NCBI GenBank assembly: GCA_021831595.1
Contig: JAKBMK010000022.1
Coordinates: 1 to 61,456, forward strand
Direction of reading: 5' to 3'
Length of the DNA: 61,456 nt
Source: a bacterium
GTDB lineage: Bacteria > Patescibacteriota > Minisyncoccia > Phycocordibacterales > UBA9973
In this document: piece by piece, positions 15,378-61,456 of the stretch
Layout of the letters: each line of letters begins with the position of its first letter
How positions within the stretch are numbered: position 1 is the stretch's first letter
Program-made: the position numbers and the translations under genes
The notes under the pieces: model-generated
Databases searched by the model: none
What the model saw: only the letters and a program-made list of their open reading frames with translations
Told to the model about the DNA's origin: nothing

Positions 15378-15387
15378 TATTTTAATC

Positions 15388-15403
15388 TGCGGAGGCGGTG
15401 AGA
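15388..15403. repeat. orphan copy of the tRNA-Ser 3' end (putative distal att site of the island)
   Basis: TGCGGAGGCGGTGAGA is identical to 47339-47354. There is no tRNA body next to it. Confidence 0.7.
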
Positions 15404-15449
15404 ACGTGAGTACACTTTTCGAATTTTACATATTCTGTACACCTTTCGC

Positions 15450-15477
15450 GTGATTTTAAATATTAATTTAAAATCAC
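15450..15477. promoter_or_regulatory. perfect 12-4-12 palindrome in the island arm
   Basis: GTGATTTTAAAT-atta-ATTTAAAATCAC. Nearby are GTACAC motifs at 15408-15415 and 15437-15442, plus an inverted copy at 15575-15582. Confidence 0.4.
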
Positions 15478-15540
15478 AAGCTCAAGGTTTTCTCATCTCA
15501 CACGCAAGCAAAGCAGTTTGCTTGCTCGCCTCTGCCCAAC

Positions 15541-15612
15541 AAAAAAGACCCTGACGGGTCATTTTGTACGAGCGGTGTACTCGGGTATGGTACCCGTGGG
15601 TGCAACCCTTGT
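15541..15612 (-). ncRNA. candidate ~70-nt small RNA (promoter + terminator, no ORF)
   Basis: A minus-strand extended -10 TGCTAAAAT (15619-15627) is followed by GC-rich hairpins (CGGGTA-cca-TACCCG) and then a GACCC-gtca-GGGTC + T6 terminator (15541-15560). Confidence 0.25.
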
Positions 15613-20706: not shown

Positions 20707-20713
20707 AGCAAAT

Positions 20714-20753
20714 AACAATAAAAGGATGATTATATAATCATCCTTTTATTGTT
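20714..20753. terminator. bidirectional terminator (40-nt perfect palindrome)
   Basis: AACAATAAAAGGATGATTAT|ATAATCATCCTTTTATTGTT, between convergent genes. Confidence 0.8.
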
Positions 20754-20769
20754 AGATATTTACTCAAAC

Positions 20770-21756: not shown

Positions 21757-21782
21757 AGTTTCTGTTTTGCGTTTTATTTATA

Positions 21783-21937
21783 AAACCTAGTGATAAGACG
21801 CAAAAAGCCCACCACATAGGTAGTGACCGAAGTCACTCATATCCGTTTCCAGATACGGCAGATCGTGCGACCCCATATGATGGGTTCTTTATGCACGATC
21901 TGACTAACTTTCACCATGCCTTTATCACTAAAGGTTT
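21783..21937 (-). ncRNA. candidate structured RNA of unknown class (four-helix junction)
   Basis: A 14-bp closing helix joins 21783-21796 to 21922-21937. It encloses three hairpins: 21822-21837 (6 bp; the loop reads UUCG on the minus strand), 21843-21858, and 21861-21900 (8 bp plus an inner ACCC/GGGT stem). A minus-strand TATAAT lies at 21968-21973. Confidence 0.3.
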
Positions 21938-22041
21938 AGGCTACTTAAACTATTAACTTGTAAAGAAATTATACCTTATTTTTTAAGGTCGCACCATATT
22001 AGCTCACATTTAAGTATTTGTGTAGTCGAGTTATCAACAGC

Positions 22042-24495
22042 TTAATTTTGAGCGGTTTTATTTTTTGCTATACGTTTCTGGTGTTTCTTATCCCATTTTT
22101 TATGCCACTCTTCTTCCCAAGAAGGCAGGTTCAAATAGATTTGTTGTGTCGCATCACATACAGGCAACAAGCCAGTTATATGATCAAAATTTTTCTTCCA
22201 AGGTTCAGGCCAACAATGTGGGACACCAGGGAATTCTGTTAATTCAGTATTTGTAAGAACGAGTACCGGATTTATTGGTCGACTGTTTTTCCAATATTTT
22301 CTTCCTACTTTTGCGATTTTAGTTATATTTTTTATTTCATATGCAGTAAGTTCTTTTTTCATAGTACAAAATACAATAACGGCACCTGGAAACTTTTTAG
22401 CTAATCCGGACATTCTGTCAAAATCTTTCTTCTCAAAATCACTAAAGCTTTTACATTCAGCAAATAAAACACCGCTACAATCATTATTTCTGTTTGATTT
22501 TTGTTCCCAAAACCCAGCAAAATCAGCTTCCAGTTTTTTGCCTTCTTTGTCTGTTGCATTAAAACTAAAAACAGGAGAAAATTTTGTACCAATTAAGCTA
22601 TGCTCATTAAAGAAATTTACTCCGAGTAATACTGAAAATGCACCATCAGCATGTTGAGGAACACTGAAAGGTCCTGATGTTTTATAACTCCATGTTGAAA
22701 TATGTATGTTTCCAATAGCAGGAAAAGAATGAAGGCATTTAGGGCATACGCAAAGATCTTTAACATCATCAAGTTGATACCAAGATTTTCTAAAACACTC
22801 TGGGCATTCTATTTTTAGACCTAGCCTAAATATACCCTTTGATAAAAGATATTCATGTAAACTTTCGTCAGAACCTCCTCGACGGCTTTTGAGTTTGGCT
22901 TTTACTTTATCAACAGATAGATCTCTGCCTTCTTCTAGTTCAATATTGGTTGTAGCTTCATCTTTGTAAAGATTTTTCCCACCATTCATGTGGTCCAAGA
23001 CTTTTAATAAACTTTCATTTCCAAGAGTTGCAATATGACCGTCTAATTTATTATATATCTGCTTTGCAAGAACCCCTGGATTAGATAATTTAGAAACCCA
23101 CCCCTGGTCTTCCAGCCATGCGAAGAAAGTTTTTTCAGAAGTAGGGATATCCCAATATTCCTTAAGTGTATCTTTCACAAGATACACGAGACCATTTCTT
23201 CCAACTCTCCATTCGTTCCTAAAAGATCCCTGACTAGAAATAGCTCGAATAAACTTTTCACCAGTACTTCTAGGTAAAACTTCTGCCATATATTCATTTG
23301 AACCATAGAACCTAAAACTGATTTCGTTGGCGCAACACGGTTCACTATCCATACTTTTATCTTGTGTAAACTTTGGAAAGACTGGATTAAAATGAACTCT
23401 AAACTTCTCCATGTCTGTAATTTCTATGGAAGTTTGTTGTTCATATGTATCATTGGGGTCTGCACCATCATAGGCCCTGCCTCCACTCTCATCCCATATG
23501 CGTGGATACCAATGTTGTAAGCTAAAATAGCCAAATTTAGAAGTATCTTTCGGATCGTCAATTTTTACTGAAGATGCAAAAAAATTACTCATATCATCCA
23601 TGTCACAATTTCTGCCTCTAATTATAGAGACTACGTCAAATACGCCACGTTGATGTTTCCACTCATGCCTATTAGCTTTAATGAACTTAATCATTTCATC
23701 TTTTAGACTTTGATTGTCTCTTAATTGTTTAGGTAGAGGAAATACAGAACGTCCAAGGGCACGCAGATTCCAAAAATCTACAATATCCAAATGTTTTGAA
23801 GCATCAAAATAAAATACTGCTGCCTCTTTTCGGAAGCCAGAGTGTCTAAAGTGTTCAAGGTTTCCTTGTGTTGCTCGTCTAGGAAAAATATTATCTCCAT
23901 GGAAAAGATCACCAACCGAGGATAGGTCAATATCAATTTCTTTTATATCAAGCGGTTTGTAATAATTTTTTCTTAAAGCATCAAGAGTTTTGTCTGGGAA
24001 TTCACCGAAGATGCTTGCCCATAAAAGTGGATACTTGTTTGGTATTTTAGGAATAATAACCTTAACTGGATATTTGGGTTTATATTTAAAATGTATTTCA
24101 AATATTTCATTAAAAACATCAAAGATTCCGATACCAAAATGAGCTTTAAATGGACTACTGTAAACACCGTGTTGTTGCCAAATTTCATTAGGACTAATGA
24201 TTCTTAGTCCTGTATCTCTCACGAAAGCTGGAATCTCTTTTGAAAATTGAACAAGAATATCGGGGTCAAAGGAATCAATATATCCAAGAATAACTTTTTT
24301 AGGTTCTGGTGCTTTGATTGGACCTTCACGCCAAGTTTTGGGCATTTTCTTATACAGAGGAATAATTGGATTATAAACTCCTCCCCATAATGTGGAGCTG
24401 ATTTTAATTGCCTCACGAACTTGCTCCGGTGAATTTGGGTCAACGAGATAAGCAAGCTTTAGTGGTCTAACTTTTATATCAACTGTTCCTAACAT
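22042..24495 (-). CDS. large hypothetical protein with Zn ribbon and PD-(D/E)xK-like C-terminal region
   Basis: 819-aa ORF. Start moved to the third codon (ATG 24495) because a minus-strand TGCTAAAAT box (24502-24510) lies exactly 6 nt upstream of it. CPEC...(20 aa)...CPKC ribbon at about 22730-22820. EADFAG...VLFAECKSF (D...ExK pattern) at about 22450-22530. Confidence 0.65.
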   Translation of the reverse strand: MLGTVDIKVRPLKLAYLVDPNSPEQVREAIKISSTLWGGVYNPIIPLYKKMPKTWREGPIKAPEPKKVILGYIDSFDPDILVQFSKEIPAFVRDTGLRIISPNEIWQQHGVYSSPFKAHFGIGIFDVFNEIFEIHFKYKPKYPVKVIIPKIPNKYPLLWASIFGEFPDKTLDALRKNYYKPLDIKEIDIDLSSVGDLFHGDNIFPRRATQGNLEHFRHSGFRKEAAVFYFDASKHLDIVDFWNLRALGRSVFPLPKQLRDNQSLKDEMIKFIKANRHEWKHQRGVFDVVSIIRGRNCDMDDMSNFFASSVKIDDPKDTSKFGYFSLQHWYPRIWDESGGRAYDGADPNDTYEQQTSIEITDMEKFRVHFNPVFPKFTQDKSMDSEPCCANEISFRFYGSNEYMAEVLPRSTGEKFIRAISSQGSFRNEWRVGRNGLVYLVKDTLKEYWDIPTSEKTFFAWLEDQGWVSKLSNPGVLAKQIYNKLDGHIATLGNESLLKVLDHMNGGKNLYKDEATTNIELEEGRDLSVDKVKAKLKSRRGGSDESLHEYLLSKGIFRLGLKIECPECFRKSWYQLDDVKDLCVCPKCLHSFPAIGNIHISTWSYKTSGPFSVPQHADGAFSVLLGVNFFNEHSLIGTKFSPVFSFNATDKEGKKLEADFAGFWEQKSNRNNDCSGVLFAECKSFSDFEKKDFDRMSGLAKKFPGAVIVFCTMKKELTAYEIKNITKIAKVGRKYWKNSRPINPVLVLTNTELTEFPGVPHCWPEPWKKNFDHITGLLPVCDATQQIYLNLPSWEEEWHKKWDKKHQKRIAKNKTAQN

Positions 24496-24606
24496 AAACA
24501 TATTTTAGCAAAAAATGACCCTTAAATAAAGGCGTTTTAGTTATCAACTACTAGTACTCGGGACGCTCTGGACTCTTAGGGCTGGTTGCGTCATTAATGT
24601 AGGTAT

Positions 24607-25938
24607 ATGAAAATAGATAACCCAAATCAAGAGAAAGGAGTAGAAAAAATTAAGGTCGAACCAAAGAAGATCAGGTACTGTCTTTATGCGAGAAAATCAA
24701 CAGAATCAGAAGAAAGACAGGTTCTTTCAATAGACAGCCAAATCAGTGAAATGCTCCAATTAGCCGATCGTGAGGGGCTTGAAGTAGTCACTATGAAGCG
24801 TGAAAGCCATAGTGCTAAAGAGACTGGGCAAAGACCTGTATTTAACGAAATTATTGAAGAAATCAAACAAGACAAATTTAATGCAATCCTCACCTGGGCA
24901 CCCGATCGTATTTCAAGAAATGCAGGTGATCTTGGAAAAATTGTAGACTTAATGGATTCAGGAAAATTACATATGATACGAACCTTCGGACAAACATTTG
25001 GAAATAATCCAAATGAGAAGTTTCTCCTAATGATACTAGGAAGCCAAGCAAAACTAGAAAATGACAATCGAGGTATTAATGTGAAGCGAGGATTGCGAAC
25101 GAGAGTAGAGATGGGGTTATGGCCTGGGATGGCACCGCTTGGATATCTCAATCAAAAACTGATGGATAGGAAGTGCCAGATAGTAATTGATCCAGACAGA
25201 GCACCAATCATAAAGAAAATGTTTGAGAAAGTGGTATATGAACATTGGAGTGGTAGAAAAGTATATAACTGGTTACGATTTGATTTAAATTTCTATACTC
25301 GAGGAAATAAACCCCTGACACTATCAGGGGTTTATCGTATCTTTAATATGCCAATCTATTATGGACCATTTGAATACCCAAGAAATTCTGATAACTGGTA
25401 TCAAGGAAGTCATACTCCAATAATTACTCAAGAGTTATTTGAAAAAGCTCAAGCACAATTAAAGAGAGATAGAATTGTGAGAGAAAACAGAGAGTTTGCT
25501 TTCACTAAATTATTTACATGTGGAATGTGTAGCTCGGGAATATCTGCTCAAGAGAAGTACAAAGAACTTAAAGATGGAACTACCGCTAAATATGTTTACT
25601 ACTCTTGCTCAAAAGCGAGAGATCGAAATTGCAAAAATAAATATATTAGAGAAGAAGAATTGATAGATGAATTATTTAAAGTGATTGATAAGGTAAGTAT
25701 CAATGAATTAGGAATGAGAATCAAGCTTGAAGAAGAAATCAAGAGATTCAATCGACTTCAAAGATTGGCAACAAAAGGCACACCTAAATACTCAATAAAT
25801 GAGGATGATGTGAATACTAGAGAATACGCCAAGTATGTACTTAGAGAAGGCACACCACTTGAGAAGAGAGAACTACTTGGACATTTAAGGAGTAGATTGG
25901 TACTAAATGATAAGAAAATTACATTAATTGAAGAGTAG
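24607..25938 (+). CDS. large serine recombinase (resolvase domain + recombinase domain + zinc ribbon)
   Basis: 443 aa. YARKSTESEERQ catalytic-Ser region, ILTWAPDRISRN, GLWPGMAPLGY and CGMCSSGI...YYSC zinc ribbon. Confidence 0.9.
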   Translation: MKIDNPNQEKGVEKIKVEPKKIRYCLYARKSTESEERQVLSIDSQISEMLQLADREGLEVVTMKRESHSAKETGQRPVFNEIIEEIKQDKFNAILTWAPDRISRNAGDLGKIVDLMDSGKLHMIRTFGQTFGNNPNEKFLLMILGSQAKLENDNRGINVKRGLRTRVEMGLWPGMAPLGYLNQKLMDRKCQIVIDPDRAPIIKKMFEKVVYEHWSGRKVYNWLRFDLNFYTRGNKPLTLSGVYRIFNMPIYYGPFEYPRNSDNWYQGSHTPIITQELFEKAQAQLKRDRIVRENREFAFTKLFTCGMCSSGISAQEKYKELKDGTTAKYVYYSCSKARDRNCKNKYIREEELIDELFKVIDKVSINELGMRIKLEEEIKRFNRLQRLATKGTPKYSINEDDVNTREYAKYVLREGTPLEKRELLGHLRSRLVLNDKKITLIEE

Positions 25939-47338: not shown

Positions 47339-47354
47339 TGCGGAGGCGGTGAGA
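47339..47354. repeat. proximal copy of the 16-nt att repeat (inside the tRNA-Ser 3' end)
   Basis: TGCGGAGGCGGTGAGA is identical to 15388-15403. Confidence 0.7.
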
Positions 47355-47427
47355 TTCGAACTCACGGAACCGATTAAGGTTCGACGGTTTAGTAAACCGT
47401 TGATTTAAACCACTCATCCACGCCTCC
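47341..47427 (-). tRNA. type II tRNA-Ser, anticodon ACU as read by hand (A34)
   Basis: GGAGGCG-TG-GAT..ATC-A-ACGGT-TTACTAA-ACCGT, a long variable arm (GAACC/GGTTC), GTGAG-TTCGAAT-CTCAC, CGCCTCC, and discriminator G. Confidence 0.75.
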
Positions 47428-47524: not shown

Positions 47525-47611
47525 GGAGCCATGGGAGAGTGGTTTAATCTACCTCTTTGCTAAAGAGGCGGGGAGTAATTTCCCCCGCTGGTTCGAATCC
47601 AGCTGGCTCCG
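47525..47611 (+). tRNA. type II tRNA-Ser(GCU)
   Basis: GGAGCCA...CCTCT-TTGCTAA-AGAGG, variable arm GGGGA/TCCCC, GCTGG-TTCGAAT-CCAGC, TGGCTCC, and discriminator G. Confidence 0.85.
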
Positions 47612-56193: not shown

Positions 56194-56267
56194 TCCGTCC
56201 TCCACGACTCGAACGTGGGACCCTCGAGGTATAAGCTCGATGCTCTAACCAACTGAGCTAAGGACGG
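56194..56267 (-). tRNA. tRNA with anticodon UAU (Ile, AUA-reading) as read by hand
   Basis: CCGTCCT-TA-GCTC-AGTTGGTTA-GAGC-A-TCGAG-CTTATAC-CTCGA-GGGTC-CCACG-TTCGAGT-CGTGG-AGGACGG-A. Confidence 0.8.
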
Positions 56268-59666: not shown

Positions 59667-60057
59667 GGGGATGATCGGCTTCGATGAAGTGAATCATCTT
59701 ATATATGCATGTAGAGTACGGAGGTATCTCTTAAAACTTCTTCCAAAAGACTAAGTGCAAACAAAGTCGCTTCAGTAAAATCACCTTACGCTTTTGCGTT
59801 TTCTGGTTTTGCTCCTGCTTTCGCCTAATTTAGGCCAGAGCAGTGTCTACTCTCTCGACATCCGATGAAGAGAGTGGGCATAATTTATCGGGTTACGATT
59901 TTAGAACAGCTTGCTCTAAAATCCGACAATTTAAAGCTCGTTATTTATCTTTCTTATATATTCTCTAGGATAAATAGTTAAAACCCATGAATATATTAAA
60001 CATGTAGATTTCTATAAGATTTCTCTCCACACGCGGGTTCGATTCCCGCCATCTCCA
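59667..60057 (+). ncRNA. ssrA: tmRNA (ssrA)
   Basis: The 5' end GGGGATGATCGGCTTCGA pairs with the 3' end CATCTCC-A, including G3:U70. T-arm GCGGG-TTCGATT-CCCGC. Tag frame GCA AAC AAA ... GCT TTC GCC TAA at 59757-59828. Lies directly after smpB. Confidence 0.9.
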
Positions 60058-61456
60058 CATAAAGGTACTTCTTCGGCAAAATGCGCCGCGCGCTCGCGCG
60101 CGGTGATGTCGTGGGGGCAGACGGTTTCCGAATTGGGCTTTTGAGTTAATGCGAATTCGGTGGGTGGGCAAAATGAGATAGATACGGATTTGTCACGCAA
60201 TTGTTGGTTCGTTCCAGTTTTTTTGAAATAGTCACGAATTTCAAAAAAATTGTCACAAGAAACCAATTGCGTGGCTTTTTTTATATCTAAAATCCATCCC
60301 CGCAATGGTTCGACCCAATTATTTCTCTCTGCTCGGGCGAAGTCAATTTTCCTAGCGAGAGACACCTTTTCTTTCAATAATTCGTTTTTCTTCGTTAAGT
60401 AATTTTCTTTCGGAATGTCGCCGTCTAAATAAAGAGTAACTAGATCGTCTAATTTTTTCTGCGTCTCTCGCTCATTATCTTTAATCCGCCCGAGCAGACT
60501 TCCCGACGATACTTTTATTTCGTTATTCCATTCGTCCGTTTTTCGTAACATATAGTCCGTCCAATCGTCGGGAAGCGAAATTTTTTGAAGCTGTTCTTTT
60601 AATTGAAGAACGAGCAAATCTTCTCGCAAATACGATTGAGAACATTTTCCTTTTTTCTTCGTACAACGATAATAACGATAACGACCGCCGTTACCTTTCG
60701 CCCATTGAGCAGTAATCATACTTCCGCATTCGCCACAACGAAGAAGTCCCGAAAAAGGAAAATTGTGTCCAACCTTTGTTTTGCGTGGTTTCGCTCGTTC
60801 TTTCAATCGCTTCTGCACAGCTTCAAATAAATCTGGGGAAATAATTGGCGTAAAGCTTCCAGTAAAATATTCATCGTAATGTTTGGTAAGTCCGAGATAT
60901 GATTTATTCGTCAACATTCGATACATGGAAGCATTGCCAAGTGGCGTTCCGGACTTCGTAACTATGCCGTGATCAGCAAAAAACTCCGCCAATGATTTAA
61001 AGCCGTGACGACCGGTAGCAAATTCTTCAAAAGCACGAACAATAATTTTTGCTCGCACATCGTCAGGTTCGATATTCCTCGTTTTCGAATTATTCACATA
61101 ACCAAAAGGTGCTTTTGCAAGCCACTCACCACGGCGGAGTTTTTGGCGAATACCACGATCAATATTCTGTTTAAGATTATCAGAATAATACTTACTTTGT
61201 CCGAACGCCACTTGAAGCATAAAGAGGCCTTGCGGGGTGGGTTCAAACCAAAATGTCGGAAAGCGTAAAGAAACCAGTTTTGTCGTGTCCACAGCGTAAA
61301 TGATGCGTCCTCCGTCGATACTATTGCGCGCTAAACGGTCGGGATGCCACGCGAGGATACCAACACCGTCTAAACTTTCAATCTTACTCATCATTTCGCT
61401 GAATTTCTCACGACCTGGTTTCTTTGCACTTTTCGACTCTTGAAATTCCTCAAGAA
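60012..61456 (-). CDS. large serine recombinase (N-terminus beyond window; C-terminus overlaps the tmRNA 3' end)
   Basis: ILAWHPDRLARN, GEWLAKAPFGY and CGECGSMI...YYRC zinc ribbon. The frame stays open upstream of the annotated Met to the window edge (LEEFQESKSAKKPGREKFSEMMSK). Confidence 0.85.
   Translation of the reverse strand, partial: LEEFQESKSAKKPGREKFSEMMSKIESLDGVGILAWHPDRLARNSIDGGRIIYAVDTTKLVSLRFPTFWFEPTPQGLFMLQVAFGQSKYYSDNLKQNIDRGIRQKLRRGEWLAKAPFGYVNNSKTRNIEPDDVRAKIIVRAFEEFATGRHGFKSLAEFFADHGIVTKSGTPLGNASMYRMLTNKSYLGLTKHYDEYFTGSFTPIISPDLFEAVQKRLKERAKPRKTKVGHNFPFSGLLRCGECGSMITAQWAKGNGGRYRYYRCTKKKGKCSQSYLREDLLVLQLKEQLQKISLPDDWTDYMLRKTDEWNNEIKVSSGSLLGRIKDNERETQKKLDDLVTLYLDGDIPKENYLTKKNELLKEKVSLARKIDFARAERNNWVEPLRGWILDIKKATQLVSCDNFFEIRDYFKKTGTNQQLRDKSVSISFCPPTEFALTQKPNSETVCPHDITARERAAHFAEEVPLCGDGGNRTRVWREIL
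60058..61456. mobile_element. start of a second integrated element at the ssrA 3' end (rest beyond window)
   Basis: The recombinase gene abuts and overlaps ssrA. G+C jumps sharply: my hand count is 39/60 at 60061-60120 versus 11/60 at 59941-60000. Confidence 0.55.

Follow-up and report, generated by a model that had tools for sequence, protein, structure and literature searches.

A LOOT-family RNA on a mobile island of a Patescibacteria genome and its possible role as a cis-acting leader

Two neighboring minus-strand open reading frames (ORFs) of 328 and 819 amino acids (the latter at 22042-24501) on contig JAKBMK010000022.1 are separated by a noncoding gap of 285 bp (positions 21757-22041), raising the question of what this gap encodes and which gene, if any, it serves. 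The window analyzed is the 61,456-nucleotide (nt) stretch formed by positions 1 to 61,456 of this contig (assembly GCA_021831595.1). A sequence-only reading had placed the gap between these two genes, as the ORF listing bears out, with the upstream gene given as 817 rather than 819 amino acids, and had proposed that the gap holds a structured RNA of no matchable family. We found that the gap encodes a minus-strand RNA of a catalogued Rfam family, LOOT. Based on comparison of related loci, we consider it fairly probable that LOOT, the function of which is itself uncharacterized, is a cis-acting leader, or attenuator, that switches between two states to control the downstream cargo gene.

The family assignment comes from an Rfam scan (cmscan) of the whole window, a check that the sequence-only reading had itself proposed. 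LOOT (RF03000) matched within the gap over the whole model (positions 1-121 of 121) at minus-strand coordinates 21942-21822, scoring 74.0 bits where the gathering threshold is 46.4, with an E value of 4.5e-14. Folding energy agrees that the gap is structured, since the minus strand folded better than 200 of 200 shuffles (z = -4.3), but the plus strand likewise beat its shuffles (z = -5.1), so that energy cannot decide the strand. The RNA was assigned to the minus strand because of its frequent G-U pairs, its GNRA and UUCG loops, and the Rfam match. A genuine structured minus-strand RNA with its own -10 box, as first proposed, is thus borne out by the Rfam match and by the comparison described below.

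The LOOT motif stems from the 2017 comparative screen of Weinberg et al. (PMC5737381), whose main text is silent on it, and it is listed as a metagenome-based family (PMC7779021). The Rfam 14 and Rfam 15 papers also treat LOOT as metagenome based, with two covarying pairs added, and a structure-prediction paper assigns it ∼43 base pairs, six helices, and many “cross-covariations.” No functional study of LOOT was found in the searched literature, in which mentions were confined to database and method papers. Its Rfam type is “Gene; sRNA” (small RNA). The name points to many tetraloops and to ocean metagenomes, and the RNA is presumed to be trans-acting.

Relatives were first sought with the pattern of the internal loop of the first hairpin (P1) in genome and viral contig collections, in which many more copies exist. 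Our own covariance model, which left the apex of the second hairpin (P2) and the 3′ tail unpaired, recovered at least 72 copies from 71 loci, the window included, and counts with a denominator of 72 refer to the alignment made with this model. Among the genome matches listed, the overwhelming majority were metagenome-assembled genomes of Patescibacteria (the candidate phyla radiation, CPR), and the LOOT gap had no DNA match in the phage genome collection. Copies found by way of a neighboring recombinase also exceeded the Rfam threshold, at 56 to 88 bits. Over the whole structure, including seven apex-tail pairs that the Rfam model does not contain, 95.5% of cells were paired and 35 of 39 pairs had changed on both sides, compared with 34 to 45% of cells paired in slid controls. 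On this comparison, the conserved architecture consists of four hairpins in succession and a long-range helix that forms a pseudoknot. The three hairpins first seen inside the gap exist and correspond to P2, P3, and P4, and the covariation across homologous regions supports all four (Table 1).

The basal helix of P2 was 99.3% paired, with both-side changes in 9 of its 10 pairs; the inner stem of P2 reads CCCAU/AUGGG in the window. When each sequence was folded separately, the apical hairpin of P2 appeared in 67 of 72 (mean, -5.5 kcal/mol versus -1.6 kcal/mol in shuffles). In a fixed register it was only 61 to 63% paired, because loop lengths differ, and it was retained as an alternative partner rather than as a main helix. 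The P3 loop was GAAA in all 72 sequences. With GUGA on P1, GAAA on P3, and UUCG on P4, the window displays the stable tetraloops capping hairpins that we take to be the hallmark of LOOT. Its core shows no difference from RF03000, having the same four hairpins, the P1 internal loop, and the GAAA and GNRA or UUCG loops. What we add beyond the 121-nt model is a 5′ leader with a promoter, a 3′ tail held in a covarying long-range helix, and a context of Patescibacteria genomes, serine-recombinase islands, and a link in cis with the gene that follows.

The P1 internal loop, CCUAAA (21940-21935) opposite CAUGG (21918-21914), resembles the 11-nt GAAA-tetraloop receptor. The core CCUAA-N/N-AUGG was invariant in 70 of 72 sequences, and only step 6-7 varied (A/C in 50 loci, C/U in 20, and the canonical G/U in 1); locus L300 carries the canonical CCUAAG/UAUGG. 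Like the group I and group II introns and RNase P in which this contact is known, LOOT has the receptor core and a GAAA loop in one RNA, and it differs in having A/C or C/U at step 6-7 in place of the G-U wobble, a position at which many changes cost little according to the paper that defines the motif (PMC10243134). We infer that the P3 loop probably docks into the P1 receptor-like loop. A second RNA-like sequence, in viral contigs L145 (1517-1641), L218, and L113, opens with the same receptor-bearing hairpin (AGCCUAAACC...GGCAUGG) and goes on as UAAUCCUGAGC..., without the P2-P4 layout of LOOT.

Outside the Rfam model, the apex of P2 pairs with the 3′ tail in a long-range helix of 13 pairs that was 94.3% paired and in which 13 of 13 pairs had changed on both sides. 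Controls slid by 1 to 3 columns were 43 to 54% paired, and none of 500 shuffles reached the observed value; the seven-pair core was 97.6% paired. Compensatory changes extend even into the U-run, for example, UACUGA with UUAGUG and AAAAG with CUUUU. The helix is pseudoknotted with basal P2. The long-range duplex was more stable than the apical hairpin in all 72 sequences (mean, -15.7 versus -5.5 kcal/mol). The apex segment can thus pair either locally or with the 3′ tail, giving one strand two mutually exclusive partners. With a G+C-rich stem next to a U-run, an A-tract opposite, and a structured loop of ∼70 nt, the helix looks like an intrinsic terminator. A consensus scan of the window also flagged a local terminator-like site, a stem at 21826-21809 followed by the U-run sequence GCTTTTTGCG on the minus strand. 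As a general feature, this local 4-bp hairpin was rejected (68.5% paired) and is real only in the subgroup to which the window belongs.

The other end of the element carries a putative promoter of its own. A TATAAT-like hexamer lies 6 to 9 nt ahead of an ACAAYTKAATA leader in most of the 72 loci, so the minus-strand TATAAT that had been pointed out in the window is not only present but also conserved in relatives. Transcription is predicted to start near 21961, ∼19 nt before P1. The leader sequence ACAATTTAAT was considered as the -10 box itself and rejected, as it stands at a fixed distance from TATAAT but anywhere from 1 to 10 nt away from P1. Similarity to related loci begins at 22044-22048, upstream of the promoter. 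We observed that a hairpin at 21973-21990 (minus strand) enters the -10 box with its 3′ arm (GACCUUA...UAAGGU-AUAAU) and covaries between loci (e.g., CCUCU/GAGG, AUAGC/GCUAU, and ACCA/UGGU); it might act as an operator on the LOOT promoter or else terminate transcription of the upstream gene.

In 66 of 67 loci, an ORF on the LOOT strand, usually one for a membrane or secreted protein, spans the initial 400 nt downstream, which places LOOT where the 5′ leader of that gene would lie. The median gap was 33.5 nt, and in the window the start codon of the 328-amino-acid ORF lies 42 nt after the end of the match to our model (21799) and 44 nt past the U-run, the final base of which is 21801. Since gaps of ∼20 to 85 nt have scarcely room for a promoter, the cargo mRNA probably carries LOOT as its 5′ leader. 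A hydrophobic N-terminal segment was present in 79% of the downstream ORFs versus 22% of other ORFs of at least 100 amino acids in the same loci, a background set that includes spurious ORFs. This N terminus is all that the downstream proteins share: no homology was found among them except between the window and locus L052, and as the genes are not homologous, they form no classical regulon. The 328-, 819-, and 505-amino-acid proteins of the window matched no Pfam family and had only weak PHROG matches, to families of unknown function.

The start regions of these genes are themselves related to LOOT. Directly before the start codon, 30 of 72 loci carry an exact copy of at least 8 nt (8 to 14 nt) of the locus-specific P2 5′ strand, compared with 2.6% of mismatched loci, and in 26 of 56 loci the P2 3′ strand was the best partner of the translation-start region, typically at -16 to -24 kcal/mol. 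In the subgroup of the window, which lacks the copy, the U-run plus GCGU pairs instead with ACGCAAAA near the start codon. This 8-bp pairing had been noticed before and does exist, with TTTTGCGT at 21765-21772, not 21764-21771. It had been taken to compete with a long closing helix discussed below; the actual competitor is the A-tract:U-run extension of the long-range helix. In 8 close relatives, the hairpin was kept in 96.8% of cells and formed part of the minimum-energy fold in 6; its changes were solely one-sided (e.g., G-U), so that it is supported by conservation and not by covariation. The original suggestion that the RNA regulates the membrane-protein gene in cis fits both the same-strand ORFs and the complementarity of their start regions to 3′-side strands of LOOT. 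Its companion, an RNA component of a system with the 819-amino-acid gene, was dropped because that gene is shared with no related locus, the closest included.

At locus L252 (∼5594, minus strand), a LOOT-like promoter, leader, and receptor-bearing P1 run directly into AAACCGCUACAGUG and a start codon, without the A-tract, P3, P4, or tail, an arrangement suggestive of a precise deletion with a copy of the P2 5′ strand at either end. Given such flanking direct repeats and this deleted form, the LOOT core was considered as a mobile insertion with a target-site duplication, an idea judged less likely because the GAAA partner of the P1 receptor lies within the “insert.”

Taken together, these observations suggest a two-state leader. 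Transcription would start at the LOOT promoter and run through the single-stranded leader, P1, P2, P3, and P4; docking of the P3 GAAA loop into the P1 receptor-like loop would clamp the base of P2. The apex (UAAAGA-A-CCCAUCA) could then pair locally, as the apical hairpin, or over ∼70 nt with the tail (UGGUGGG-C-UUUUUG). In one fold, apex-tail pairing would end transcription at the U-run or free a 3′-side strand to mask the start region, this strand being the U-run plus GCGU in the window and the P2 3′ strand in many relatives. In the other, P2 would be a complete hairpin, the tail and start region would be free, and the cargo gene could be expressed. Competing pairings are conserved, namely, the apical hairpin as against the long-range helix and, in 30 of 72 loci, the P2 3′ strand with the start region; the window has only the weaker U-run hairpin.

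Several points weigh against this proposal. The transcript ends, termination at the U-run, read-through, and the direction of regulation are all inferred from sequence, and the U-run is degraded in some relatives (CUUAGUG) with its pairing retained, which argues that pairing and not termination is under selection. A 13-pair helix combined with basal P2 would make a long pseudoknot, which may not be sterically feasible. The window itself lacks the exact copy of the P2 strand ahead of the start codon, and its coupling would depend on an A/U-rich 8-bp hairpin of -7.8 kcal/mol without compensatory changes. Short intergenic gaps are usual in compact genomes anyway, and the hydrophobicity contrast is drawn against a background with spurious ORFs. 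Finally, neither a ligand-binding core nor the coherent gene set of a classical riboswitch regulon was found: apart from the receptor and the GAAA loop, conservation at the nucleotide level is sparse, no ligand pocket stands out, and the downstream proteins have no common sequence family.

Known leaders offer partial parallels. Like transcription-attenuating riboswitches and leaders, LOOT has a promoter, a structured domain, a terminator-like helix with a U-run, and a short spacer before a same-strand ORF, together with mutually exclusive pairings of the terminator strand and the translation-start region. Apart from the missing ligand pocket and common gene family, it differs from them in that the 5′ strand of its putative terminator lies inside the structured domain, ∼70 nt away, and so forms a pseudoknot. 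The put RNA of phage HK022 and the EAR RNA of Bacillus are cis-acting leaders that alter termination of mobile-element or operon transcripts. LOOT is similarly structured and, within a mobile element, comes right behind its promoter and ahead of a putative terminator and cargo genes; it shares no sequence or structure with them, and its own tail makes the terminator-like helix.

A stand-alone, trans-acting sRNA of ∼160 nt is the best surviving alternative to a cis-acting leader, and we regard it as rather unlikely. Such an RNA would start at its own promoter, end at the U-run, and bind a protein or RNA elsewhere, the long-range helix serving as terminator and then burying the 3′ end. Its own -10 box and conserved 5′ end, a terminator-like 3′ end, a compact fold with the tetraloop-receptor contact typical of stable RNAs, a single-stranded leader that could be a seed, mutually nonhomologous downstream genes, and the Rfam type, which itself speaks against a leader, would all suit this role. 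However, the nonrandom orientation, with a same-strand ORF within tens of bases in nearly every locus and no room for a separate ORF promoter, would be unexpected, and the U-run is a poor terminator in several members. The complementarity of the P2 3′ strand to the adjacent start region is locus specific and hard to explain in trans.

LOOT might alternatively belong to the recombinase beside it. A serine recombinase lies near 48 of 72 LOOT copies, upstream in 46 of 49 cases and on the opposite strand in 43 of 49. Conversely, of 80 loci with a gene for a homologue of the recombinase, 34 contained LOOT, in 35 copies, 30 of them upstream and divergent, 0.2 to 7 kb away. The window recombinase is only 24 to 28% identical to phage integrases of the phage genome collection. 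Across the loci, ParB-type and N6/N4 DNA methylases recur on the other side. Similarity between loci is modular, with the recombinase block and the LOOT block (window 21765 to 22044/48) shared and the 819-amino-acid gene between them not shared.

The host is a member of the Patescibacteria, with an enolase that shares 86% identity with the one from a “Candidatus Nomurabacteria” genome, and comparison with a syntenic “Candidatus Nomurabacteria” contig (L321) shows that window ∼15386-53350 (∼38 kb) has been inserted between MscL and RecG. In addition to the recombinase-LOOT region, this insertion encodes arsenic and heavy-metal resistance functions (ArsR/ArsD/ArsA and two heavy-metal P-type ATPases), along with a DsbD/cupredoxin protein, a DsbA-like protein, and a major facilitator superfamily transporter. 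On a single Nomurabacteria contig, three LOOT copies accompany at least two of the recombinase, so LOOT is island borne and not a housekeeping gene. Window 15386-15557 resembles L321 DNA just past the transfer-messenger RNA (tmRNA) gene. In the window, a tmRNA gene (59667-60060) and three tRNA genes (47341-47427, 47525-47611, and 56194-56267) reached Rfam thresholds, two of the tRNA genes lying inside the island.

Direct repeats of a ∼10-nt core (GTTAYCAAC, plus strand) were observed at window 22030-22038 and ∼24541-24549, each with its own conserved arm. They were also seen in loci L241-L320, and in compact loci such as L265 one core joins both arms. These repeats look like the mark of site-specific, integron-like cassette insertion beside the recombinase gene. 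Across assemblies labeled Paceibacterota, Nomurabacteria, Zambryskibacteria, Vogelbacteria, and “Saccharibacteria,” the recombinase protein was 85 to 100% identical over the best aligned segment (L241-L275), and its DNA in the window was 89 to 91% identical to that of L241-L244 and 73 to 83% identical to that of the more distant loci compared. Identity across labeled phyla and classes suggests either recent horizontal spread or loose assembly taxonomy. In two loci, L304 (9358-9505) and L308 (9361-9524), LOOT lies on the recombinase strand, ∼80 nt past its stop codon, with tRNA genes next in L308.

The linkage and its divergent arrangement favor LOOT being an RNA cofactor of the recombinase, a regulator of integration or excision, or a passenger by the attachment site, as do two copies of the core TGTTGGTAAC, one ∼85 nt upstream of LOOT and the other ∼65 nt ahead of the recombinase start, which bracket the variable genes as direct repeats (one copy alone in compact loci), and the exact breaks of similarity at module borders. 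We nevertheless judge a role in recombination or island mobility improbable: core and arm occur without LOOT in L284 and L285, 24 of 72 LOOT copies have no recombinase within the available DNA, and it is the downstream start region, not the core repeats, that the variable parts of LOOT match. To our knowledge, no large serine recombinase uses an RNA. LOOT also departs from the bridge RNAs of IS110, which need an adjacent DEDD recombinase and have loops complementary to target and donor DNA; the LOOT neighbor is a large serine recombinase, and the variable segments of LOOT match the start region instead.

Combining the leader and the island, we put forward, as a tentative extension that is possible without being probable, that LOOT is a new class of portable cis leader and not an sRNA gene. 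A bistable RNA with a pseudoknotted helix as its terminator and a copy of one strand at the cargo start codon would then sit beside a serine-recombinase cassette-insertion site in Patescibacteria islands, amounting to an integron-like capture platform with RNA-controlled genes, mostly for membrane proteins.

Two further explanations fared worse. The sequence-only reading had drawn a 14-bp helix (21783-21796 with 21922-21937) closing a four-way junction, which would be a riboswitch aptamer with TTTTGCGT/ACGCAAAA as a competing expression platform. The closing helix can be drawn in the window (13 pairs with a 2-nt bulge, -12.7 to -14.1 kcal/mol), and 74% of cells pair in 8 close relatives versus 30 to 48% in slid controls. 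It is not conserved, however: in the two closest relatives it reaches only -7.7 and -5.9 kcal/mol, elsewhere mismatched partners equal it, and several pairs in that count fall on invariant receptor bases. It also consumes P1, which is supported by covariation, conserved in 72 sequences, and the bearer of the receptor motif, and changes in the P1 loop (GUGA, GGAA, and GAAA) are uncompensated. The closing helix was therefore rejected, the four-helix junction clashes with P1, and the aptamer, now highly improbable, is largely refuted by the comparison. Equally far-fetched is head-to-tail joining of LOOT molecules through apex-tail pairing into rings or chains, like phi29 packaging RNA or the recently described self-assembling bacterial RNAs. 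This pairing could form between molecules, and terminase genes occur in some loci (phrog_38, 5e-87), but nothing sets it apart from within-molecule pairing, the U-run/A-tract layout and downstream ORF suit a terminator better, and packaging genes are absent from most loci, the window included.

Table 1. Coordinates of LOOT and associated features in the window.
Feature	Position	Strand	Remarks
LOOT RNA core (P1-P4)	21822..21942	-	RF03000, cmscan, 74.0 bits
P1 hairpin, GUGA loop	21913..21941	-	Pairs 92-99% kept (n = 72)
P2	21859..21902	-	Basal helix CAGAUCGUGC (21902-21893) / GCACGAUCUG (21868-21859) around A-tract, X, and apical hairpin
P3 hairpin CGUAUCUG-GAAA-CGGAUAUG	21838..21857	-	GAAA loop 21849-21846; helix 97.6% paired, 8/8 pairs covary (n = 72)
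P4 hairpin AGUGAC-UUCG-GUCACU	21822..21837	-	Loops of relatives GNRA or UUCG
Long-range helix, 5′ strand	21878..21891	-	A-tract UAAAGA (21891-21886) and X CCCAUCA (21884-21878), in P2 apex; pairs with 21814-21801
Long-range helix, 3′ strand	21801..21814	-	Tail UGGUGGG (21814-21808), C, U-run UUUUUG (21806-21801); outside Rfam model, terminator-like
Downstream hairpin UUUUGCGU (21805-21798) / ACGCAAAA (21772-21765)	21765..21805	-	Reuses U-run; ends 8 nt before start codon (21756-21754)
Single-stranded 5′ leader ACAAGUUAAUAGUUUAAGU	21943..21961	-	Conserved, outside Rfam model; consensus ACAAYTKAATA upstream of P1 across loci
-10 box TATAAT of LOOT promoter	21968..21973	-	Conserved spacing to leader
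Conserved upstream block	21973..22041	-	Kept in 32/72 loci at fixed spacing
Parts of the upstream block		-	Core GCTGTTGATAAC 22041-22030; CTACACAA 22025-22018; GAGCTAAT 22005-21998; hairpin 21990-21973
Downstream cargo ORF, 328 amino acids	20770..21756	-	Hydrophobic N terminus; no Pfam family
Large serine recombinase	24607..25938	+	Divergent from LOOT; Pfam Resolvase, Recombinase, Zn_ribbon_recom

At the far end of the cargo gene, window 20713-20754 forms a perfect 19-bp inverted repeat between the convergent 505- and 328-amino-acid genes, terminator-like on both strands.

The finding is real and is explained by a routine Rfam scan, the additions based on comparison being all computational, and the practical result for the window alone is modest. 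For the orphan LOOT family, it offers a concrete hypothesis, namely, cis control of termination and translation before membrane-protein genes, and we suggest that the Rfam model be extended at both ends. As the hosts are barely tractable, it would be helpful to know of a regulatory RNA that is widespread on their mobile DNA.

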